NCBI GenBank assembly: GCA_965209085.1
Contig: OZ242376.1
Coordinates: 1,312,001 to 1,376,000 of the forward strand
Source of the DNA: Nitrosopumilaceae archaeon
GTDB lineage: Archaea; Thermoproteota; Nitrososphaeria; Nitrososphaerales; Nitrosopumilaceae
Direction: 5' to 3'
Length of the DNA: 64,000 bases
The translations under genes were made by a program, and so were the position numbers. Below the pieces are notes generated by a model. The model was not told the DNA's origin. It made no database searches and saw only the letters and a program-made list of their open reading frames with translations. This document shows, piece after piece, positions 1-49,699 of the stretch (its first letter is position 1; each line of letters begins with the position of its first letter).

Positions 1-418
1 TATGATGTGACAGATACAAAATTCCAACATAACGCAGATCACCTATTGGAACTGACAAAAAAAGTCATATGTAAATCTCCAAAACATTTCACTACTGACG
101 GACTTCCGGCATACGCCAAATCATCTAAACGTGTATTCGGTAAAGATACACAATATCATGCACACATTCACTTGCGTAGACCGCAACAATAACAAAATGG
201 AACGGTTTAATGGAACCTTTAGAGATCGTGAATTGGTATTTAGAGGTTTAAAAAAATCAGATACGCCTTTGATCGGTGGCCATCAAGCATTTTACAATTA
301 CACTAAAAAACACATAGGTCTTGGCGGCAAAACTCTAGCAGAGGCTTCAAACATTAAAGTTGCAGGATTAAATAAATGACAAACTTTGATACAAAATGCT
401 AGTTTGCATACTTATGAA
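1..418 (+). pseudogene. IS6-family DDE transposase pseudogene (C-terminal fragment)
   Basis: ORFs 7..192 and 131..379 together match the C-terminus of 1912..3027 (TTDGLPAY, NNKMERFNGTFRDRE). There is a frameshift near 180 and a TGG->TGA stop at 377-379. The remaining QTLIQNASLHTYE is still readable up to 418. Confidence 0.88.
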
Positions 419-588
419 CGTTTTTCCCAAATGTGTGAAGTTTTTTTCTGAAATTCATCAAACTGTAATGAAGTTTTATTAAAAATATCCCGTGCTTCTT
501 CTTTTGTCATTTTATCATGTTCACATAACCAATCTAAAAGTGCCACCATTGGAGTATATTGATTGTTTAATGTATCGCCTTTGACCAT
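412..588 (-). CDS. Small hypothetical cargo protein (58 aa, MVKGDTLNNQYTPMVALLDWLCEHDKMTKEEARDIFNKTSLQFDEFQKKTSHIWEKRS)
   Basis: Manually translated ATG588..TAA412, below the ORF-track cutoff. It converges on the transposase end, as 1616..1906 does in the intact element. Confidence 0.5.
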   Translation of the reverse strand: MVKGDTLNNQYTPMVALLDWLCEHDKMTKEEARDIFNKTSLQFDEFQKKTSHIWEKRS

Positions 589-638
589 ATTGAATCTTGT
601 AATATATTTTATGAATAAATATGTTTTTAGTCAATCCA

Positions 639-721
639 GGCACGAGGTCACATCATGCCTAGAATTTACACAATAAATGAATATGTAGGCATAAAATAGC
701 ATGAGGTGCTGACCTCGTACC
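639..721. repeat. Imperfect ~83-bp inverted repeat / hairpin
   Basis: GGCACGAGGTCA (639-650) pairs with TGACCTCGTACC (710-721) at 11/12 positions, and pairing extends inward with bulges (CATCATGC / GCATGAGGTG). Confidence 0.6.
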
Positions 722-904
722 AATCCTGAGAAGATCCATATTTCACGCCTGACGCCTAAGTGTTGATAACTTTACAGAATCTAAAATTCTACATACTGTG
801 ATCAGAATTGAGACCATATCCCTAAGTTAACAGAAAAACACCCTAAATTAACAGCAGGTTGGAAATCGTGGAAAAGCCCTAAGAATTACCAGAGTATGAT
901 ATCA

Positions 905-929
905 GGTTCTGTAAACTTATCGGTGCATA
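905..929 (+). repeat. Terminal inverted repeat of IS6-like element (left in window)
   Basis: 25/25 reverse-complement match to 3920-3944. Confidence 0.92.
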
Positions 930-991
930 GGCGTGGATATGGATCTTCTCTGAATTGATTGTTTTATATGTTGGAATATGAGTTAAAAATT

Positions 992-1210
992 ATGAGTGAT
1001 TTATTGGATATTGATCGGATAGTTCCAGAACTGCCAGAAGGTTCACGTATGGATATGGTAGAGTGGGCAAATATGTTAGATGTTAAATTGCGAACATTAG
1101 ATGGTCGTACAAATAGTGCATTTCAGTACCGAGATAAAAGATATAACCAATTACAAGAATTGATTTCTACCATAGAAAAAGAAATTGATGATTTGAAAAA
1201 AAGACCATAA
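992..1210 (+). CDS. Small coiled-coil cargo protein A
   Basis: ORF 959..1210; the ATG at 992 lies downstream of TATA-like TTTTATAT (962-969). Has a VP...EWA motif and a C-terminal heptad pattern (LQELISTIEKEIDDLKK). Confidence 0.65.
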   Translation: MSDLLDIDRIVPELPEGSRMDMVEWANMLDVKLRTLDGRTNSAFQYRDKRYNQLQELISTIEKEIDDLKKRP

Positions 1211-1221
1211 TAAAATTTATC

Positions 1222-1259
1222 AAAAAGTGATCATTTTTTGAGTAAGATCAATAAAGGGG
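1222..1259 (+). promoter_or_regulatory. Duplicated promoter/operator module copy 1 (TGATC-N13-GATCA + AATAAAG)
   Basis: 35/38 identical to 1560-1597, with the same 28-nt offset from the end of GATCA to the ATG. Confidence 0.7.
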
Positions 1260-1277
1260 CATATTTTAAAATACATT

Positions 1278-1514
1278 ATGAGTTTAGCAGCTACTGTCCC
1301 AAATGAAGCACCAAATTGGTTTAGAGAGTGGGCAAAGGGTATGGATAGAGATACAATATTTGGAACTGCGATATTAGAACAATCGGACTATACATTGGAA
1401 AGTGTAAAGAGGGATTTTGGAAATTTTAATACACGAATGGATAAAATGGATAAAGATATTTTAGAGATAAAAGATGATATAAAAACTATAAAGAAATTGT
1501 TGACTAATAAATAA
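1278..1514 (+). CDS. Small coiled-coil cargo protein B
   Basis: 78-aa ORF with a VP...EWA motif and C-terminal heptads (MDKMDKDILEIKDDIKTIKKLL), preceded by the duplicated promoter module. Confidence 0.72.
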   Translation: MSLAATVPNEAPNWFREWAKGMDRDTIFGTAILEQSDYTLESVKRDFGNFNTRMDKMDKDILEIKDDIKTIKKLLTNK

Positions 1515-1559
1515 TTTATCGGTTTTATTCAGGTTCTGCAAATCATCTATGGATTGACA

Positions 1560-1597
1560 AAAAAGTGATCTTTTGTTGAGTTAGATCAATAAAGGGG
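1560..1597 (+). promoter_or_regulatory. Duplicated promoter/operator module copy 2
   Basis: 35/38 identical to 1222-1259; upstream of ATG1616. Confidence 0.7.
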
Positions 1598-1615
1598 TAG
1601 ATTGCATGATGTAGT

Positions 1616-1906
1616 ATGAGTAGATTAGATGAAATAAAATCTGTAAAAGATGTTACTGAACGTGATATACAAGAGTGGTGTGGCGATTTACGAAAACATG
1701 ATGATAAGGCGTTTAAATATATTGGTTGGTTGTTTTGGGTTCATCACGATTTTCTGAAATCGGGGTTTGAAGAAACGAAAGTTGCTATTAAAGAAATGAA
1801 AGATGATATTGAAAAAGTGAATGATAAATTGGTTAGTATGGATTCAAGGTTTGACAGCATGGATTCAAAATTGGATTCCATAAATGAAAAATTAGAAAAG
1901 TTGTAA
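1616..1906 (+). CDS. Small coiled-coil cargo protein C
   Basis: 96-aa ORF with an EWC motif and a heptad-repeat tail (LVSMDSR/FDSMDSK/LDSINEK). Confidence 0.72.
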   Translation: MSRLDEIKSVKDVTERDIQEWCGDLRKHDDKAFKYIGWLFWVHHDFLKSGFEETKVAIKEMKDDIEKVNDKLVSMDSRFDSMDSKLDSINEKLEKL

Positions 1907-1911
1907 TGCAA

Positions 1912-3027
1912 TTATTCATACGTATGCAAACTAGCATTTTGTATCAAAGTTTGCCATTTGTTTAATCCAGCAACCTTAATGTTTGAAGCTTCAGCAGGCG
2001 TTTTGCCACCAAGTCCTATGTGTTTTTTAGTGTAATTGTAAAATGCTTGATAGCCACCGATCAAAGGGGTATCGGATTTTTTCAAACCTCTAAATGCCAA
2101 TTCACGATCTCTGAATGTACCGTTAAAGCGTTCCATTTTATTATTATTACGATCTTTGCGTAAATGGATATGTGAATGATGTTCCGTATCTTTACCAAAT
2201 ACACGTTTAGATGATTTGGCGTATGCAGGAAGTCCGTCAGTTGTAAAATGTTTAGGCGATTTGCCTATGGCATTTTTTGTGAGCTCTAATAGACGATCTG
2301 CATTATGTTGGAATTTTGTATCTGCCATGTCATAAGCAAGGAAATAACGGGTTTGATCATCTATGGAAGCAAAAAGATATTTTTTCTGACCTGATACTTT
2401 GAGCCATACTTCATCAGCTCTAACCCATGTACGATCAGCGGTTCTTGGAATGATCTCATTTAGGTATTTTTCAACCATACGAGAATATTTGGCAATCCAT
2501 TTGTAAACTGCCATGTGGGATATTTTAATTCCCATCATCTCATAATGGTTGGCAATATCACGGACTGACATACCCGTGAAATACATTTGCATATCTCCAG
2601 TAATAGTAGAGGGTAAAACACGGGTATTTTCAAAGCCAAAGTTTGTTGTAAAAATTTTGGTACATTCTTGGCATTGATACTTTTGAAGTTTGCCGTGCCT
2701 ATTGGTTCTATAACCACGTTTACGTAAATTACCCGAACTGCAATATTTGCATAGGTTGAGCTTTGATCGTTCCATGATTTTAAATTCATTATTGGCATAT
2801 CCACGATTTTGTTTTATTATCTTTATAATGACATGAATATGTTTACAGTCGGATTTGCGGTATTGATGATCAGGGCATTCGCATACAAGACCGTTTCCAG
2901 TCCTAGAGACCGTATAGTATTTGTCGGGCGTGGACATGGATTTTACTTTGAATGTGTGGGTATCGGTTTGAGTTATTGCATTTGCCGTTTCTAGTATTTG
3001 GTTTGCTTGTTGTTTGCGTGTATTCAT
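1912..3027 (-). CDS. IS6-family DDE transposase with N-terminal SWIM zinc finger and Zn ribbon
   Basis: SWIM motif CECPD-x6-CKH; CxxC...CxxC ribbon (CKYC, CQEC); DDE motifs RADEVW, TTDG and NNKMER. Confidence 0.9.
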   Translation of the reverse strand: MNTRKQQANQILETANAITQTDTHTFKVKSMSTPDKYYTVSRTGNGLVCECPDHQYRKSDCKHIHVIIKIIKQNRGYANNEFKIMERSKLNLCKYCSSGNLRKRGYRTNRHGKLQKYQCQECTKIFTTNFGFENTRVLPSTITGDMQMYFTGMSVRDIANHYEMMGIKISHMAVYKWIAKYSRMVEKYLNEIIPRTADRTWVRADEVWLKVSGQKKYLFASIDDQTRYFLAYDMADTKFQHNADRLLELTKNAIGKSPKHFTTDGLPAYAKSSKRVFGKDTEHHSHIHLRKDRNNNKMERFNGTFRDRELAFRGLKKSDTPLIGGYQAFYNYTKKHIGLGGKTPAEASNIKVAGLNKWQTLIQNASLHTYE

Positions 3028-3037
3028 ACAGTTGGTA

Positions 3038-3097
3038 TTAAGAGTACGCTTAATATATGTATCTGTTAATAGTACGCTTAATTAAGAGATCGCTTAA
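3038..3097. promoter_or_regulatory. Three 16-bp near-palindromic operator-like sites between the divergent transposase and AbrB-like genes
   Basis: TTAAGAGTACGCTTAA (3038-3053), TTAATAGTACGCTTAA (3066-3081), TTAAGAGATCGCTTAA (3082-3097). Confidence 0.75.
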
Positions 3098-3127
3098 TTA
3101 ATATGGTAATAGGTTATTGCACCGTGT

Positions 3128-3298
3128 ATGACACGGTGGAAAAAAGATGAGACGGAATTTACAGTCAGCTTATCACATGACGGTGGGCTTGGAATGATTG
3201 CACGCATACCTAAACCAATTAGGGAAGAGTTGGGCAATCCTACCAAGATTAAATTTCTAAAGTATAAGGGTAAAATATTAGTAGATTCTGGAGATTAA
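3128..3298 (+). CDS. AbrB/MazE/SpoVT-like small DNA-binding protein (56 aa)
   Basis: Manual translation MTRWKKDETEFTVSLSHDGGLGMIARIPKPIREELGNPTKIKFLKYKGKILVDSGD; the IPKPIREELG...KIKF...GKILV pattern fits a swapped-hairpin fold. Confidence 0.72.
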   Translation: MTRWKKDETEFTVSLSHDGGLGMIARIPKPIREELGNPTKIKFLKYKGKILVDSGD

Positions 3299-3304
3299 AA
3301 CGGT

Positions 3305-3445
3305 TCATAGAATTTTGCGATCACGGATAAGGCGTGTGCAATATTCAAGACCATGACTGCGATTTCTAAATATTCCCGATTTTACCTGTTTGTCAATCCA
3401 TCTTAAGATTTCAGCTTCTATGGATATGGCGATCTTATGCTTCAC
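3305..3445 (-). CDS. Ribbon-helix-helix (CopG/Arc/MetJ-like) DNA-binding protein (46 aa)
   Basis: Manual translation from GTG3445: MKHKIAISIEAEILRWIDKQVKSGIFRNRSHGLEYCTRLIRDRKIL. Pattern is a beta-strand KIAISI, a helix, then the G.F.NRS turn typical of RHH proteins. Confidence 0.75.
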   Translation of the reverse strand: MKHKIAISIEAEILRWIDKQVKSGIFRNRSHGLEYCTRLIRDRKIL

Positions 3446-3452
3446 ATGGTAC

Positions 3453-3497
3453 AGTATGACTAGGTATGATTAAAATACGGTATGATAAAGTCATACT
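3453..3497. promoter_or_regulatory. Operator-like repeats between the divergent RHH gene and the membrane-protein gene
   Basis: AGTATGACT (3453-3461) is inverted with AGTCATACT (3489-3497); GGTATGAT direct repeats at 3463 and 3479. Confidence 0.6.
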
Positions 3498-3500
3498 TTT

Positions 3501-3878
3501 GTGAGTGCAGTTAAGGGATTTCTAGCAGGGGGGTTTACAGTATTTGTATTTTTTATCATAGTATTGACAGGTTTTGCACTAGATTCAGATATTGAATATA
3601 CGAATGATTCAGGTATTGCCCATACGAATGAATTAAACTATACGGATAGAGCAGTACTGATAAAATTAGCTCAAAACTGTTATGGCAGAGATACTGATTG
3701 CTATGTAAAAAATTTGGGGTATGGGTTGGATAATAATGATAAATACATAATAGAATCATGGACAAATACTTGTCAGACATTTAGCAAATATCAATATGAT
3801 CGTTGCTGGAGTATAGATAGCGAGGATGCTGGCATAATTACTAGCATACGAAATATGCACTTAAAAGCGGAAAAATGA
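3501..3878 (+). CDS. Membrane-anchored/secreted hypothetical cargo protein with 4 Cys
   Basis: 125-aa ORF with an N-terminal hydrophobic segment (FLAGGFTVFVFFIIVLTGFAL); lies inside the TIRs. Confidence 0.7.
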   Translation: MSAVKGFLAGGFTVFVFFIIVLTGFALDSDIEYTNDSGIAHTNELNYTDRAVLIKLAQNCYGRDTDCYVKNLGYGLDNNDKYIIESWTNTCQTFSKYQYDRCWSIDSEDAGIITSIRNMHLKAEK

Positions 3879-3919
3879 CGATTTTTGGTTGATTTGGTTG
3901 ATCGCTATTTATGGTCAAA

Positions 3920-3944
3920 TATGCACCGATAAGTTTACAGAACC
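3920..3944 (-). repeat. Terminal inverted repeat of IS6-like element (right in window)
   Basis: TATGCACCGATAAGTTTACAGAACC, exact reverse complement of 905-929. Confidence 0.92.
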
Positions 3945-3987
3945 AAGAATCGCACAGCTTATATACACAAGTACCGTACTTTACGGT

Positions 3988-4095
3988 ATGTTACGGTGCG
4001 AATACTGTACAAGAATCTTTGGCGCGACCCACAACGGGTTTGCAGAAAAGACGTTCCATGAGTTATTACATGGTCCAAATGTGGTAAACAGCTAA
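3988..4095 (+). CDS. C2H2-type zinc-finger microprotein (35 aa)
   Basis: MLRCEYCTRIFGATHNGFAEKTFHELLHGPNVVNS has CxxC...HxxxH. The longer ORF-track version (3889) runs through the IS TIR, so its 5' part is unlikely to be coding. Confidence 0.5.
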   Translation: MLRCEYCTRIFGATHNGFAEKTFHELLHGPNVVNS

Positions 4096-4141
4096 AAGCT
4101 AGCCACATACCAATATTTTTTTAAATCATTACATTTCCTAT

Positions 4142-5383
4142 ATGGTATTGACAGTCAAAAAGAAAAAATCAAAAAAAGCATCCGTAAAACGATCGGCTAG
4201 GCCTGTAAAAACAAAAGCATCCAAGCCTGTAAAATCAAAGACTGCTAGACCGACAAGGCCTGTAAAAACAAATGCTTCAAGATCGGCAAATACAGACAAG
4301 AGTATGACTTTGATCATAGAATCGACAAAAACGGTCTCAAAGGAGATAAAGACAATCTCAAAGATCTTTACGGACAATCAAAAAATACTGGAATCCATGA
4401 AAACCATGATAACCACCCTCTCTGGAACCATGCAGCACATTGACAGGCATTCCAAACAAATTATGCTGTTGGAAAATGAATCTCAAAAAATTCAGGCGGA
4501 CCTGCGCCAGGTAAATCAAAAGGCAGAGTCTGTGAAACCATCAGGCGCAATTAATGGCAATATTGAAAAAAGACTGGTCGCAATTGAAAACGAATCAAAT
4601 TTTGTACAGGTAAAGGAAATAATGTCAGAATGTCTTAAAATTACAAAAACTAGCGGACAAACTTTGGATAAAATATCAGATTATCTAAATAGTGCATCCA
4701 ATACAAACGCTGACAATATTGAATCAAAACTCGACGCCAATGCCAAGATGCTTGATGATGTCAGAAAACATCTTTACGATCATGTGCAGGATGGTGCGGA
4801 TAAAAATATCAAAAATGAAATCTCTGAAAAAATATCGACAATTTCTCGCGAGATTGCAGGATTACGCGAGCAGATACGCAGCGTTTCAGATGCGCAAATA
4901 ACTGACGAGCTTACAGACCACATGAGTGCCATATCCTCAAAAGCGGAGGTTCTCATGGGCATTCCGGCAGAATTACTAGAGATGCAGTCCCGTCTGAATT
5001 CCATAGAAGGAAAAATTGCAGAGAAAAAAGATTCCAGTGAAAAACAGCCATCAATTACGTTGCTAGAATATCAGGTAAAAATTCGCATGAATTCAGAATC
5101 AAAGTACGGGGATACAGACGAGCTGCAATCCATGATAGATCAGACCTCCGAGGTACTCCAAACAATTGAAAAAAACAAAAGCACCGGTATTTCAAAATGG
5201 GGCGTTTCACGCATTTTAGAGTGCGCCGACAGATGGGAGTTGCGATTCTCAGATGTACTAGCAATGATGAAAGATACGCTTGGTGCAGACATACTAAAGG
5301 AAGCAATTCGGATAAAACAGGTCAAAGACGTATACGGTGTGCGCGCAGTAGAGGATACAAAATCCCTTTTGGGTTTAGACTAG
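4142..5383 (+). CDS. Coiled-coil hypothetical protein with Lys/Ser-rich repetitive N-terminus
   Basis: 413-aa ORF with RPVKT-type repeats followed by long heptad regions. Confidence 0.8.
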   Translation: MVLTVKKKKSKKASVKRSARPVKTKASKPVKSKTARPTRPVKTNASRSANTDKSMTLIIESTKTVSKEIKTISKIFTDNQKILESMKTMITTLSGTMQHIDRHSKQIMLLENESQKIQADLRQVNQKAESVKPSGAINGNIEKRLVAIENESNFVQVKEIMSECLKITKTSGQTLDKISDYLNSASNTNADNIESKLDANAKMLDDVRKHLYDHVQDGADKNIKNEISEKISTISREIAGLREQIRSVSDAQITDELTDHMSAISSKAEVLMGIPAELLEMQSRLNSIEGKIAEKKDSSEKQPSITLLEYQVKIRMNSESKYGDTDELQSMIDQTSEVLQTIEKNKSTGISKWGVSRILECADRWELRFSDVLAMMKDTLGADILKEAIRIKQVKDVYGVRAVEDTKSLLGLD

Positions 5384-18371: not shown

Positions 18372-18654
18372 GGGCGTGCCGGGAGTAACCCTCCTTTTGT
18401 TTTCACGATATTTCGCTTTGCAGCCTACCTGAACCATGCACAGAAACTCGGTTCTGTTTGGCCTTTCTCCATGCGGGTCAGATTTTCCATTCCGACCATC
18501 CGGAAACCTCAGGTTTTACCCTCATAGTACGCCGGTGCGGATTTTTTTCTGTGCTGTTGCCGATCATCTCTGACCACCCATCTCCAGGTCGCATCTTCTG
18601 TGAGGAGGGAGGAGTTTCCTCTGCCGTAGCAGTGTTTCGTGCTCCGGCTCGCCC
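18372..18654 (-). ncRNA. rnpB: Archaeal RNase P RNA
   Basis: Minus strand: P1 GGGCGAGCCGG...CCGGCACGCCC; CR-I GAGGAAACUCC; CR-V AAACAAAAGGAGGGUUA; followed by a T-run. Confidence 0.9.
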
Positions 18655-19673: not shown

Positions 19674-20459
19674 TTATTGTGCCCGCATTCGTGCCAGCCA
19701 GTCAGATTCTGTAGGAATGTGCTGCGTATCCGCAGTAGGCGTTTGGGCCTGTTGTGGTGTAGTTGACTCTGGTGGTTCTGGCATTGTTACGTTCATTGGC
19801 ACTTTTGGGAGTGTCGTTTCCGCTTCTGGGACTGATTCACCTGGCTGAGCGCAGAGCGTTTGCTCCACCTCAGTGTCAAGATTCTCCAGCCTTTGCTGTA
19901 CGCGTTTAATTTCAGAGATTTCGTTTTGCATGTGTTCTTCAAGACTTTTTGTTTGCTCACATACTGTAGAAAATGCAGTCTCGGCCATCTCGCCACTTTT
20001 TGACTGGATTCGGGCATCAAAGACGATTACCTTTACCGCTTTTAGCTGCTCATCCAGTTGCGAGAGCCTTGAATTCAGATCTGCATCAATTTCCCGGTGC
20101 ATGGATTCAAACGAAGTTATTTTTGTACGGTATTTTGCATGTACTAGGGACGCATCTTCTTTCATCTCGTCATTATCTGAGACAATGTCGATTATTGCTC
20201 GAAGCCTTCGCAGAGTCATTCCTTTCTCACGTAGCATTTTTTGTGAATCCAATCTCCATTTTGGTATGAAGATGATCACATCATCTTGTACTACAAGTTG
20301 AGAGTAGGGAATCTGCATCAGCCCAGAGTGTCCGCAGTCGACACCTACCGTATGCACACTGCCGTCGATGTCGGTCAGCGTTCCCACGGTTGTGCCCATG
20401 ATTGAACCGTACATGTCTTTTACAGATTTGCCGATTATCTCCGCGTTGTGGTTGCTCAT
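19674..20459 (-). CDS. cdvA: Cell division protein CdvA
   Basis: IGKSVKDMYG PRC-like N-terminus, FIPKWR, coiled coil and Pro-rich tail. Confidence 0.87.
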   Translation of the reverse strand: MSNHNAEIIGKSVKDMYGSIMGTTVGTLTDIDGSVHTVGVDCGHSGLMQIPYSQLVVQDDVIIFIPKWRLDSQKMLREKGMTLRRLRAIIDIVSDNDEMKEDASLVHAKYRTKITSFESMHREIDADLNSRLSQLDEQLKAVKVIVFDARIQSKSGEMAETAFSTVCEQTKSLEEHMQNEISEIKRVQQRLENLDTEVEQTLCAQPGESVPEAETTLPKVPMNVTMPEPPESTTPQQAQTPTADTQHIPTESDWLARMRAQ

Positions 20460-33600: not shown

Positions 33601-35001
33601 CTAGTACAGATGGCTCATAAGACGTATCTGTTCCTCTGTAGATATGACGTTTTTGGCAGTAAGCGCTTCAAGCAGTTCCTTAAGCAGTGCTTTTTGCTCT
33701 TCAGGCATTACATTGCTAGTACCCTTGTCGCCCGGAGGTCCTGGCGGACCGCGCGGTCCTGCCTGTCCGATGGGACCGGATTTGCCCAAAGGACCACGTT
33801 CTCCTGCTACACCTACATGTCCAACAGTACCTCTTTCACCCTGAGGACCCTGTATTCCCTGCGGACCGGACGGACCGGGTTCGCCGGACGGACCACGATT
33901 ACCTAACGGTCCTTGCAGTCCCTGCGGCCCTTTGTCTCCCTGCATTCCAGGAATTCCAGTCAAACCTTTTTCTCCGGATTCACCTTGTTTACCTTGCGGT
34001 CCTTTGCCACCTGCAACTCCCTGCTGTCCCTGCGGACCTTGTTCACCTTGAGGGCCTGGCGGACCAACCGGACCTTTGTCGCCAATCATTCCTTGCGGAC
34101 CTAGCTCTCCGGATTTTCCAACAGGACCCTGTATTCCTTTGTCGCCGGACGTACCGGACGGACCGGTTTCACCTTTTGAACCAACAGGTCCGCGCAAACC
34201 GGTCAATCCTTTTTCTCCAGCAGAACCTATCGGACCTTTGTCACCGAACGGACCTTCAGAACCGCGCGGGCCGAACGGACCTTTGTCACCAATAGAACCG
34301 ATGGGGCCTTTGTCACCTTTTGGTCCCTGCAATCCTGGAGAACCTTTGTCTCCGCGATCTCCTTTGTCACCGGTCAGACCTTTTGATCCAAAAGAGCCTT
34401 TGTCACCGGGAGGTCCTGCAACACCTACAGATCCTCTTGGACCTGCGGTGCCGGATATGCCTCGCTCTCCAACAGAACCTGTCTGACCCGTAAGTCCCTT
34501 GTCACCAACTGACCCTTTGTCTCCGGTATGACCTTGCGGACCACGATCTCCTGGAGGACCTGACGGACCGGGCAATCCTTTATCGCCTGCCACACCTCGT
34601 ACGCCACGCTCTCCGGCAGGTTTACTCGTTTCTGCATCAGATCTTAAATTATTTTCAGGTACAGATTTTTTTATGGTTGCAGGCTTTGTGCCGGATATTT
34701 TATTTTCAATATCAACTTGCAGTAGGGTATGAATGTCAGATAGCTGATCTTGTACCAATACGTACACACGATCATTTTCAAATACGGATTCTGGGAGCGG
34801 ATCATCATCATCTCCGAGAACCTCAGAAAACGCGCCGTTAGTGACGTACAGATGCAGGGGTTTTCTCCACAGGGGTGTATATGTGCCTTTTGAGATTGTA
34901 TCTGGGGCGGGTTTTTTATCCAAAATTGATACAAATACCTCGTATGTGCCGGTCCGCTCAAACGGTGATTTCCCAGAAATATTCAAGGTTGTATCAGACA
35001 T
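33601..35001 (-). CDS. Collagen-like protein (~100 uninterrupted Gly-X-Y triplets)
   Basis: Gly every third residue from aa 130 to 427; globular N-domain and short helical C-domain. Confidence 0.93.
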   Translation of the reverse strand: MSDTTLNISGKSPFERTGTYEVFVSILDKKPAPDTISKGTYTPLWRKPLHLYVTNGAFSEVLGDDDDPLPESVFENDRVYVLVQDQLSDIHTLLQVDIENKISGTKPATIKKSVPENNLRSDAETSKPAGERGVRGVAGDKGLPGPSGPPGDRGPQGHTGDKGSVGDKGLTGQTGSVGERGISGTAGPRGSVGVAGPPGDKGSFGSKGLTGDKGDRGDKGSPGLQGPKGDKGPIGSIGDKGPFGPRGSEGPFGDKGPIGSAGEKGLTGLRGPVGSKGETGPSGTSGDKGIQGPVGKSGELGPQGMIGDKGPVGPPGPQGEQGPQGQQGVAGGKGPQGKQGESGEKGLTGIPGMQGDKGPQGLQGPLGNRGPSGEPGPSGPQGIQGPQGERGTVGHVGVAGERGPLGKSGPIGQAGPRGPPGPPGDKGTSNVMPEEQKALLKELLEALTAKNVISTEEQIRLMSHLY

Positions 35002-41467: not shown

Positions 41468-42469
41468 TTACAGATATGTAATTTTTGAGAGATGTTTTGC
41501 CGCTTTTAATTCATTATCAAATTCATGAGCGCTCATTACATTTTGTTGCTCGTATATGCTTTTGAATTTTCTGCCATCATCGGCAAATATTCCCACGACA
41601 TAATTATCATCCCCGTCCAGACTGTATTTTTGCATGCATTTGTAGACTGCCGCAGAGGACGGACTGATAAGCATATTGTCCTTTTGGCAGACTTTTTTTA
41701 CGACTCCAAACGCCTCTGCGTTTGTTACAGTTATCCAATCATCCACGACATTTTCGCGTTTTAAAAACAGGTCAGGTTTTGCAGATTCCTCAAAATTGCG
41801 CCACCCCTGAATCATGTGATCTTTTTGCGGCTGACAGCCGATTATTTTTATCGCCGGATTTTTCTCCTTTAGATACGTGCCAATTCCGGTTATCGTTCCG
41901 CCGGTTCCAATTCCGGTGAAAAAATGCGTGATCTTTCCCCCCGTTTGTTCCCACAATTCAGGGCCCGTACCTTTGTAATGCCCCATGTAATTTGCCTCGT
42001 TGGCGTACTGGTTTGGCGAATAATACGTGTCAGGTCTAGAGGATGCAATTGACGTGGCAAGTGCGATGCTCTGATCTGTTCCGGCACCCACCTTTGGGCA
42101 TAGATCATCGGAGGTTTCAAAGACTTTGGCGCCCAGATTTCTTATTATATCCTTTGTCTCCTGGCTTGCTTTTTCAGGTATGACAATTTCCACTTTGTAA
42201 CCTAGTATGTTTGCGATTCCAGTCAGGGCTATTCCGGTGTTGCCCGAGGTGGGCTCTATTATGATGCTTTTTCCAGGAACCAGCTTGCCGCGCTCCTCGC
42301 CGTCGCGAATCATCCAGTATGCTGCCCTGTCTTTTACAGAACCAAACGGATTATGACCCTCCAGTTTTGCATAAAAATCCCCAGCAGATCCTGACAGTGA
42401 GTCAAGTTTTACAAGCGGCGTATTTCCAATGCGCGAGAGCGTCTCTTTATCGGATGCTGTTTGTTCCAC
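41468..42469 (-). CDS. cysM: PLP-dependent cysteine synthase family protein
   Basis: IGNTPL, NPFGSVKDR, PTSGNTG and GTGGT motifs. Confidence 0.88.
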   Translation of the reverse strand: MEQTASDKETLSRIGNTPLVKLDSLSGSAGDFYAKLEGHNPFGSVKDRAAYWMIRDGEERGKLVPGKSIIIEPTSGNTGIALTGIANILGYKVEIVIPEKASQETKDIIRNLGAKVFETSDDLCPKVGAGTDQSIALATSIASSRPDTYYSPNQYANEANYMGHYKGTGPELWEQTGGKITHFFTGIGTGGTITGIGTYLKEKNPAIKIIGCQPQKDHMIQGWRNFEESAKPDLFLKRENVVDDWITVTNAEAFGVVKKVCQKDNMLISPSSAAVYKCMQKYSLDGDDNYVVGIFADDGRKFKSIYEQQNVMSAHEFDNELKAAKHLSKITYL

Positions 42470-48583: not shown

Positions 48584-49699
48584 TACTGACACGCAAAAGT
48601 AACTGCAATTTATGACTCTAGGCACAATGTAACCGCAAGATATTTGGATCACCTCGGGTATGAATCAATCATGAACAAAGAACATCAGGAACTGTATAAT
48701 GCAAGCAGGCATGTCAAAGACAGAAAAGAGATATCAAAAATATATCTTGTAAGCATGGTCAAATACCAAAACATATCCATAGCTAAAGCTTCTGAATTAT
48801 TGATGAAAAGCTACAACTGGGGCAAAGAATGCATGCAACGATATGACGAGCTTGGATTAGACGGTCTTAAAACCCTGCCCAAATCGGGCAGGCCTTTATT
48901 ATTATCAAATATACGATTTAAAAAAATTATTGACATGACAAGACGAGAGAACGGTTCAGTTGATCCAAAACAGGTAATGCACAACATTAAACGCAAAACC
49001 GGAGTAAAATATCACATATCAAATATCAGAAAAAGACTCCACAAATTCTCATTTGTCAGCAAGGCTCCAAAAAGAATTCATGTCAATGCAGCTCCGGCAT
49101 CAGTCTGCTACAACTGGTCGCAAAACACTAGGCGTCAAATATGCCTACTTGAAGAGCGTGGATTTGCAGTAGGCGTTCAGGATGAATGTATAATAAAATA
49201 CGATTCATTATCCGGCAAGAAACTCTGGATTGAAATAAGCAAAAATTGTTACGTAAAATCCACAGGTTCTCACAAAAAAGTTGTTGTCTTTGGAGTACTC
49301 TTATCGGATGGCAGGCAGATGTTTGCAAGCTATGATTTGTTTGATGCAAAATCATTTCTCAAGTTTTTAAAAATGGCTCATCAAAAATTTGGAAAAATTT
49401 GCATAATTACGGATAGAGCTGCACAACACAGAAAATCCAAAATTATTAAAAAATATATCTCCGAGCACAAAGATGAGGTAAAGCTTTTGTTTTTCCCTAC
49501 AAGTTCACCGTTTCTGAGTGCCGTTGAAGAATGCTGGCATCAAGCCAAACGTGCGTTGGTCGTCTCTGAATATTATGAAACATTTGAGAATATGAAATAC
49601 GCAATTTCAGAATATTTTAGAACTGTACGATTCAAAGTATCAATCATGGATTTTATTATGAGAAAAGCTGTAGATTGCGGTTACTTTTGATCCGCAGTA
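48584..49699 (+). mobile_element. IS630-family insertion sequence, TA duplicated in a CTAG target
   Basis: Imperfect TIRs TACTG-N5-CAAAAGTAACYGCAATYTA at both ends; flanks C-TA (48581-83) and TA-G (49700-02); extra internal copy GTAACCGCAA at 48629. Confidence 0.92.
48671..49690 (+). CDS. IS630 family transposase
   Basis: HTH with GRP motif; DDE triad QDE, TDRAAQH and SPFLSAVEECW; the stop lies inside the right TIR. Confidence 0.92.
   Translation: MNKEHQELYNASRHVKDRKEISKIYLVSMVKYQNISIAKASELLMKSYNWGKECMQRYDELGLDGLKTLPKSGRPLLLSNIRFKKIIDMTRRENGSVDPKQVMHNIKRKTGVKYHISNIRKRLHKFSFVSKAPKRIHVNAAPASVCYNWSQNTRRQICLLEERGFAVGVQDECIIKYDSLSGKKLWIEISKNCYVKSTGSHKKVVVFGVLLSDGRQMFASYDLFDAKSFLKFLKMAHQKFGKICIITDRAAQHRKSKIIKKYISEHKDEVKLLFFPTSSPFLSAVEECWHQAKRALVVSEYYETFENMKYAISEYFRTVRFKVSIMDFIMRKAVDCGYF

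Follow-up and report, generated by a model that had tools for sequence, protein, structure and literature searches.

Three small coiled-coil open reading frames carried as passengers by an IS6/IS240-like transposon in the chromosome of a Nitrosopumilaceae archaeon

The window analyzed here is a stretch of 64,000 nucleotides (nt) from a Nitrosopumilaceae archaeon (assembly GCA_965209085.1, contig OZ242376.1, positions 1,312,001 to 1,376,000 of the forward strand), and three small open reading frames (ORFs) near its start, termed A, B, and C, are passenger genes of an IS6/IS240-like transposon in the archaeal chromosome. Sequence comparison places A in a rare conserved family of proteins of 70 to 78 amino acids (aa), with B and C most likely being relatives of that family that diverged quickly. 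The view that combines the passenger cassettes, the A family with its diverged members B and C, and a role of the encoded proteins as multivalent adaptors or decoys is given about an even chance of being correct as a whole. The transposon and its three passengers are laid out as follows, in window coordinates.

905-929, plus strand: left terminal inverted repeat, a perfect 25-nt inverted match to 3920-3944 that starts GG and continues TTCTGTAAAC...
992-1210, plus strand: ORF A, 72 aa, an extended N-terminal peptide with VPELP followed by one helix ending in heptads
1278-1514, plus strand: ORF B, 78 aa, with VPNEAP, EWA, and heptads at the C terminus
1616-1906, plus strand: ORF C, 96 aa, with EWC in a short helix followed by a long helix, and without proline
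1912-3027, minus strand: transposase, 371 aa, with a DDE domain and an N-terminal zinc-finger-like extension
3920-3944, minus strand: right terminal inverted repeat, the perfect partner of 905-929

A sequence-only reading of this DNA had described A, B, and C as the cargo of an element, and their position inside perfect 25-bp inverted repeats together with an IS240/IS6-type transposase bears this out. The repeats enclose 3,040 bp, and the 25-bp sequence occurs at only two sites in the window when up to 3 mismatches are allowed, against an expectation of zero. Bordered by one repeat on one side and by the 3' end of the transposase gene on the other, the three ORFs point into the element and converge on that gene; the stop codons of C and the transposase are 5 nt apart on opposite strands. 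The transposase scored 58.1 bits against the Pfam model DDE_Tnp_IS240 (cutoff, 27) and 116.3 bits against the NCBIfam model transpos_IS6, which is below the cutoff of 125 for that model. Its closest plasmid matches are the clostridial IS6-like ISCpe7 transposases, at 27 to 29% identity, and its nearest counterparts in the species collection belong to a Bathyarchaeia metagenome-assembled genome (MAG; 43% identity) and to Nitrosopumilaceae MAGs (26 to 31% over the full length). The whole element gave no blastn match in the plasmid collection. Both repeats begin with GGTTCTGTAAA, and their GG tip and cTGT and aaa motifs agree with the ends described for IS6 elements (PMC7986276). No 8-bp target duplication is present, the 8 nt outside position 905 being different from those outside 3944; because IS6 members moved by cointegrate formation and recombination can lack a target duplication (PMC7986276), its absence is weak evidence against IS6 membership. 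A further match to GGTTCTGTAAA at 42333 lies inside a gene for a pyridoxal phosphate (PLP) enzyme and was taken as chance.

The three ORFs do not overlap, and all are on the plus strand. As had been noted from the sequence, each begins with ATGAGT (at 992, 1278, and 1616); the frame of A is open from an upstream TTG at 959, and its start was placed at 992 instead of at an upstream TTG or ATG because of the 72-aa relatives of A. A two-codon mini-ORF, ATGAGTTAA, lies at 976-984, 16 nt upstream of the ATGAGT of A; when the upstream regions are aligned, it falls at the B and C start codons, as if the start had been duplicated. The shared EW[AC] motif was located as EWA at residues 24 to 26 of A and 17 to 19 of B and as EWC at residues 20 to 22 of C, and the VP shared by A and B was located at residues 11 and 12 and at residues 7 and 8, respectively. 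When residues were shuffled within each protein, EW[AC] appeared in all three in 0 of 200,000 trials; a test that allows for the post hoc choice of motif, counting any common dipeptide as rare as EW or rarer, gave 192 of 20,000 shuffles, or about 1%. The heptad repeats reported at the C-terminal ends are also real by this kind of measure, with best hydrophobic fractions at the a/d positions of 0.78 (A), 0.89 (B), and 0.92 (C), values equalled in 15, 0, and 0 of 5,000 shuffles, respectively.

Coding status was judged from the DNA as well. One ATG-initiated ORF of at least 72 codons in 1,496 nt of such AT-rich composition is common (661 of 2,000 dinucleotide shuffles), but three such ORFs on one strand are rare (6 of 2,000). 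First codon positions are purine-rich, and GC content is higher at first than at third codon positions (GC1 > GC3). A TATA-like box lies about 26 nt before each ATG: TTTTATAT for A (962-969) and AATAAA for B and C. In archaeal promoters, a TATA-like box at such a distance fits leaderless transcripts, and the arrangement suggests that A, B, and C, each with its own putative promoter, are expressed as three separate leaderless transcripts.

The evidence for a protein family is clearest for A. A word-indexed search of 5.8 billion proteins returned a 99% identical copy (P0004), which is probably a second copy of A in the same genome, and a relative with 61% identity (P0005). When the A alignment was used for an exhaustive HMMER search of 1.84 billion representatives (E <=0.001), 6 proteins were recovered; four of them were new, with lengths of 70 to 78 aa and E values of 6e-8 to 3e-5. 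P0006 to P0009 are 35 to 37% identical to A. Twelve positions are invariant in 7 of 7 rows of the resulting alignment (M1, P12, P15, M22, W25, A26, L33, L54, I58, E64, I65, and L68). The family features are an N-terminal hydrophobic-P-x-hydrophobic-P, an (E/D)M-x-x-W-A motif, a long helix, a C-terminal E-I-x-x-L heptad motif, and a length of 70 to 78 aa. A genome scan with the A alignment gave 227 pattern matches, of which 0 were confirmed.

The connection of B and C to this family comes from a hidden Markov model (HMM) built from five remote relatives of A, without any window sequence. Its targets were 456 entries: every window ORF of 40 aa or more (452 in all) and a second entry each for A, B, C, and a further ORF, D (described below). 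A scored 74.9 bits (E 1e-22) with all of the invariant columns present, C ranked second of the 456 at 11.9 bits (E 0.0058), and B ranked third at 10.8 bits (E 0.013); the next match had an E value of 0.58. Most of B and C is aligned collinearly by the HMM, with EW[AC] falling on the invariant W-A and the IKDDI and MKDDI peptides of B and C falling on the C-terminal motif of the A family. At the N-terminal end, the VPNEAP of B has one extra residue between the prolines compared with the A family and C has no proline; both keep the Trp. Full shuffling (2,000 trials) never equalled the score of either protein; segment-preserving shuffling (also 2,000 trials) never equalled that of C and equalled that of B in 6 trials (maximum, 18.5 bits). 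The reversed sequences of B and C scored only 2.9 and 3.3 bits. These ranks and controls amount to profile similarity beyond coiled-coil composition, on which the sequence-only reading had made its proposal of a family depend.

The DNA around the cassettes and to their left gives a second view of how the array was assembled, and the features concerned are as follows.

1-781: degraded related element in inverted orientation, left of the intact element
412-588, minus strand: ORF D, 58 aa, a different passenger in the left copy, in the slot equivalent to that of C
1215-1283, plus strand: upstream module of B, with a conserved core of 38 nt, AATAAA some 26 nt ahead of the ATG, and ATGAGT
1532-1558, plus strand: degenerate insertion sequence (IS) end remnant before the C cassette, with the tip GGTTCTGCAA at 1532 and a subterminal-like stretch
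1553-1621, plus strand: duplicated copy of the B module, upstream of C

The B and C modules, each of 69 nt, are 78% identical, and their 38-nt core occurs at only two sites in the window, against an expectation of zero; the local DNA score of one upstream region against the other had a z value of 18.9, with 0 of 1,000 shuffles as high. Amplification on the element, proposed earlier for the ORFs themselves, is clear only for this upstream module; local comparison found no significant likeness among the coding DNA of A, B, and C. The remnant before C resembles the end of the intact element (1529-1542 is 93% identical to 902-915), and the distance from 1532 to the 3' end of the transposase gene is 383 nt, compared with an equivalent distance of 363 nt in the left copy. 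The left copy retains a transposase remnant at 1-379 whose arms are 85 to 89% complementary to 1915-2334 and whose frame is broken by a stop after ...HLRRPQQ. Its end, at 752-781, is 123 bp from the end of the intact element, and its end and subterminal stretches match 894-957, with 721-741 matching 937-957. ORF D was considered as a fourth family member and rejected (1.0 bit against the A-family profile; Smith-Waterman z <1). The slot looks like a stack of cassettes, each made of an element end, a promoter, and a small ORF. On this model, the ancestral element would have run from 1532 to 3944 with the single cassette C, and a block of end, A, and B would have been added later outside the C cassette, with the functional end now at 905. 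The base composition of the element differs from that of its surroundings: GC content at third codon positions (GC3) is 0.22 to 0.30 in A to D and the transposase compared with 0.43 to 0.46 in three host genes, and the first 4 kb of the window is 33 to 36% GC compared with about 44% for most of the remainder.

Several results weigh against a common origin of A, B, and C or against a lasting association of the A family with elements of this kind. Only B and C themselves were found when each was used in the word-indexed search of 5.8 billion proteins. hhalign gave P values of 0.002 and 0.0037 but probabilities of just 14% and 9% in the two comparisons. In pairwise BLASTP, A and B aligned at E=10, B and C aligned at E=0.075 in the heptad region, and A and C gave no alignment; Smith-Waterman z values for the pairs were 1.4 to 2.1 over the full length and 1.3 or lower for all of the N-terminal parts, and tblastn cross-matches among the three were at noise level. 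(The best non-self tblastn match of A in the window, at E 0.02, is a 413-aa ORF at 4142-5383 on the plus strand, just outside the element; its product combines a lysine-rich tail at the N terminus with a long coiled coil and matches no Pfam family, and the match to A was taken as compositional.) Between the coding regions of B and C, DNA similarity is not significant (z=1.75; 60 of 1,000 shuffles as high), apart from a collinear 29-nt stretch of 79% identity, although it is between their upstream regions, so that the promoter could precede unrelated ORFs. A scan for distantly related transposases gave 9 loci, with 26 to 53% identity over the best segment 4 of them matching only 30 to 63 residues and several only in a short N-terminal stretch; no A-, B-, C-, or D-like ORF was found in these 9 loci by tblastn or HMM, and one of them (L001), whose ORFs and repeats were inspected, has no comparable cassette. 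The link of the A family to this kind of element rests on this one locus.

Some of these results favor the leading alternative, that there is no three-member family: A would be conserved, B and C would be unrelated to it or noncoding, their likeness would come from coiled-coil composition and a chance EW, and only the promoter module would have been duplicated. To the negative pairwise tests, the singleton status of B and C, and the gap between the coding and upstream z values of B and C can be added the ease with which a single ORF of this length arises by chance, the roughly 1% outcome of the corrected motif test, and the segment-preserving shuffles that met the score of B. This account has more difficulty with the window-free profile, in which C and B outrank larger coiled coils of the window (among them CdvA and the 413-aa ORF) through full-length, collinear alignments that put Trp on the invariant Trp, and with the low scores of the reversed sequences. 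The TATA-like box at an equal distance from each ATG, the strong heptad phasing, the purine-rich first codon positions, and the excess of GC1 over GC3 also run counter to it. We regard the absence of a family as rather unlikely and lean somewhat toward a distant common ancestry of A, B, and C as the better bet. The proposal of a diverged paralogous family is partly supported: the remote-relative profile ranks C and B directly after A, whereas the pairwise tests, the coding DNA, and the hhalign probabilities give it weak support or none.

Much of the same layout could also be explained at the RNA level, with the transcripts from the inward promoters damping the transposase by collision or by 3' antisense pairing and the ORFs being incidental or secondary. 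The promoter module is much better conserved than the B and C coding DNA, the stop codon of C comes within 5 nt of the opposing transposase stop, a short palindrome spans the junction between C and the transposase gene (1905-1938), and the convergent layout recurs in the left copy with the different ORF D. Such a function is nonetheless improbable, judging from the sequences: the A family is conserved as protein, with constant length and invariant residues at 35 to 61% identity; no Rfam match was found in 1-4200 at E <=0.1; and heptad phasing in all three ORFs points to selection on the proteins.

The structural models agree with the earlier description of helical heptad-repeat microproteins, which is supported by predicted helices for A and C and by the heptad tests for all three proteins. 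The AlphaFold2 (AF2) model of A, made from a seven-row alignment, has an extended N-terminal peptide and a helix over residues 20 to 70 that starts near E24-W25-A26 (mean predicted local distance difference test [pLDDT] score, 85.3), and the single-sequence model of C has a short helix at residues 15 to 26 and another at residues 31 to 95 (mean pLDDT, 77.3). All three proteins are viewed as a short N-terminal segment and then a single long helix that starts at a conserved Trp and finishes in heptads. A lone helix of 50 to 65 residues with heptad phasing is predicted to be stable only as a coiled-coil oligomer. By eye, with no predictor run, neither the three sequences nor the all-helix models of A and C show a transmembrane segment.

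None of the family, fold, and library searches gave A, B, or C a function. Searches of A, B, C, and D against Pfam, NCBIfam, PHROGs, and PADLOC returned subthreshold coiled-coil noise or nothing, as did searches with all 7 rows of the A-family alignment. The sequence-only reading had put forward dominant-negative or decoy proteins, toxins, and antidefense or virus-interaction factors as candidate roles; none of the 7 proteins submitted to PADLOC had a hit. Among the subthreshold matches, C scored 19.6 bits against Pfam XhlA (PF10779; cutoff, 34.7) over residues 55 to 92 only and matched phrog_5553 at E 1e-6 over residues 57 to 96. Searched against PDB sequences, the family profile matched nothing beyond coiled coils of generic or designed type (best E, 0.0029). 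Foldseek gave 0 matches at E <=0.001 for the C model against BFVD and for the A model against PDB, a null result that is uninformative because the models are single helices. ESM Atlas neighbors, which serve as leads only, were below 0.9, and the nearest clusters for C are archaeal coiled-coil proteins at 0.83. With A, B, and C as tblastn queries, the phage and plasmid collections yielded nothing except one coiled-coil match at E=0.02 (C, Clostridioides phage).

If the three proteins do oligomerize, each coiled coil would bundle several N-terminal peptides and could act multivalently, as an adaptor or a decoy, toward a partner in the cell. For A, the most specific candidate partner would be the MIT domain of the division ATPase CdvC/Vps4, because the invariant motif of the A family (VPELP in A) is the MIM2 core. 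The core peptides of the family are VPELP in A and VPKLP, VPEMP, VPTMP, FPEFP, and VPAIP in its relatives, and their invariant hydrophobic-P-x-hydrophobic-P is that of the MIM2 core, for which a regular expression has been given (PMC8970359). In its strict form, this expression matches 4 of 6 distinct family members (A, P0005, P0006, and P0008), and P0007 and P0009 fit the core with an uncharged x; the background in the window is 4 occurrences in 51 proteins (17,112 aa), 2 of them in CdvA. The CdvB MIM2 peptide of S. acidocaldarius that binds the CdvC MIT domain contains LPELP (PMC5840170). The archaeal host has a Cdv division system, and the window holds CdvA, F420 genes, and archaeal RNase P; no CdvC gene is in the window, and CdvA is the proposed thaumarchaeal partner of CdvC (PMC8970359). 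CdvA itself lies at 19674-20459 on the minus strand (PF18822; E 2e-23) and has a proline-rich C-terminal tail with the MIM2-core matches LPKVP and MPEPP; it ends ...ESDWLARMRAQ, in which the D-W segment is loosely like the (E/D)-x-x-W-A of the A family, probably by coincidence.

This candidate interaction has its own difficulties. The full MIM2 consensus comprises 10 residues, the second half being xxP-hydrophobic-P, and the half motifs of CdvB1 and CdvB2 bind only marginally in S. acidocaldarius (PMC5840170). The second proline pair is absent from the A family, in whose alignment no prolines follow the core; the motif is N-terminal in the family, and B and C do not have it. A full-text literature search on MIM2 in archaeal viruses with Vps4 found no precedent in the library covered. 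Several weak motifs displayed on one coiled coil could conceivably offset their weakness by avidity toward a hexameric ATPase, and B and C, lacking the motif, would have other partners or none. That the A family is a mobile-element-borne MIM2 mimic engaging the MIT domains of hexameric CdvC/Vps4 through coiled-coil-displayed peptides of the VPELP type is thus a long shot suggested by the motif. Were it true, the transposon, or the virus or plasmid from which it came, could tap or stall thaumarchaeal division or vesicle budding, and B and C would be cassettes that had diversified and whose heads had been redirected to other targets.

Beyond the transposase and A, B, and C, the element contains three further small ORFs, at 3128-3298 (plus strand, 56 aa), 3305-3445 (minus strand, 46 aa, with weak ParD/MazE-like matches at E 0.003 to 0.011), and 3501-3878 (plus strand, 125 aa, Cys-rich with a hydrophobic N terminus). 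An assignment of the ORF at 3128-3298 as AbrB-like was dropped as unsupported. Tandem and palindromic TTAAGAGTACGCTTAA-like repeats at 3038-3097, in the spacer from which the transposase gene and this ORF are divergently read, resemble an operator, possibly for a small protein of the element.

A role of A, B, and C in transposition itself, with the microproteins modulating it by binding to the transposase or to the ends of the element, is very unlikely. Small regulatory proteins are found in other IS families, as in the leucine zipper of IS3 OrfA, and the three ORFs are encoded inside the element beside its end, with GATC half-sites in the B/C upstream core that could form an operator. Against this, the ORFs found in this slot in the two related copies (D and C) are unrelated to each other, no A-like gene occurs at any of the 9 related-transposase loci, and no DNA-binding domain was found in the Pfam and NCBIfam searches. 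IS6 elements are moreover described as single-gene elements, with one ISfinder member carrying a passenger (PMC7986276). An addiction, toxin, or antidefense module that stabilizes or protects the element would suit small, fast-evolving genes on a mobile element, the weak subthreshold matches of C and B to XhlA, "hemolysin," or holin-type coiled-coil models, and the weakly ParD/MazE-like ORF at 3305-3445, but is the most improbable of these alternatives given the empty PADLOC result, the lack of a transmembrane segment visible by eye, the confinement of the XhlA and phrog_5553 matches to the heptad region, and the single phage match of C.

Elsewhere in the window, an archaeal RNase P RNA lies at 18374-18652 on the minus strand (Rfam RF00373; 179 bits). 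Unusually for an archaeon, the product of the minus-strand ORF at 33601-35001 (466 aa) has collagen triple-helix repeats (PF01391; E 6e-49). A second low-GC stretch (48 to 54 kb, 37 to 39% GC) includes a further transposase gene at 48644-49690 on the plus strand (DDE_3; E 1e-16).

Among known systems, the carrier is closest to the IS6/IS26 elements, in particular the long zinc-finger group (ISCpe7-like) and the rare "tIS" ISDsp3. It shares with them a DDE transposase that scores above the cutoff of the Pfam IS240 model, an N-terminal zinc-finger-like extension like that of the long group, and terminal repeats that start GG and contain TGT and AAA motifs (PMC7986276). It differs in size and content, with 3,040 bp and at least six extra ORFs compared with about 0.8 to 1.5 kb and one gene, as well as in its NCBIfam IS6 score below the cutoff, the lack of an 8-bp target duplication at its flanks, and its archaeal host. 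Harmer and Hall hold that the archaeal and the long bacterial zinc-finger groups ought not to be included in the IS6/IS26 family (PMC6807381), and the carrier is therefore filed here as IS6-like and not as a member. The review of the IS6 family names a single member with a passenger gene, ISDsp3 (PMC7986276), and a survey of the thaumarchaeal mobilome describes IS-like transposons as typically having one or two genes and reports passenger-carrying composite DNA transposons as undetected in archaea (PMC6563490). Because these surveys report so few genes and passengers, stacked and independently promoted microprotein cassettes on a 3-kb IS6-like element would represent an unusual cargo architecture.

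The passengers themselves have two points of comparison. Generic coiled-coil families (the PaREP15/HSBP1/DUF5798/DUF7310 clusters, XhlA, and phrog_5553) share the heptad-rich C-terminal helix, but the Pfam scores are below the cutoffs and cover the heptad region only, and the Trp-containing N-terminal part has no counterpart in them. The MIM2 motifs of ESCRT-III/CdvB and of thaumarchaeal CdvA share the hydrophobic-P-x-hydrophobic-P core, whose prolines are invariant in the A family, and VPELP in A stands beside LPELP in the tested CdvB peptide (PMC5840170), in a host that has a Cdv system and with CdvA in the window; A differs from these proteins in having neither a Snf7 nor a CdvA domain, in the N-terminal position of the motif, and in the absence of the second half of the consensus. 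If the MIM2 lead fails, A, B, and C remain orphan coiled-coil microproteins of modest interest; if it is true, this would be a rare prokaryotic mobile element that addresses an ESCRT-type division machinery through a short linear motif. The element would also offer a handle on the origin and diversification of tiny orphan genes on transposons, and the array is best described as a passenger-carrying IS, a kind already known, in a modestly novel arrangement of cargo.

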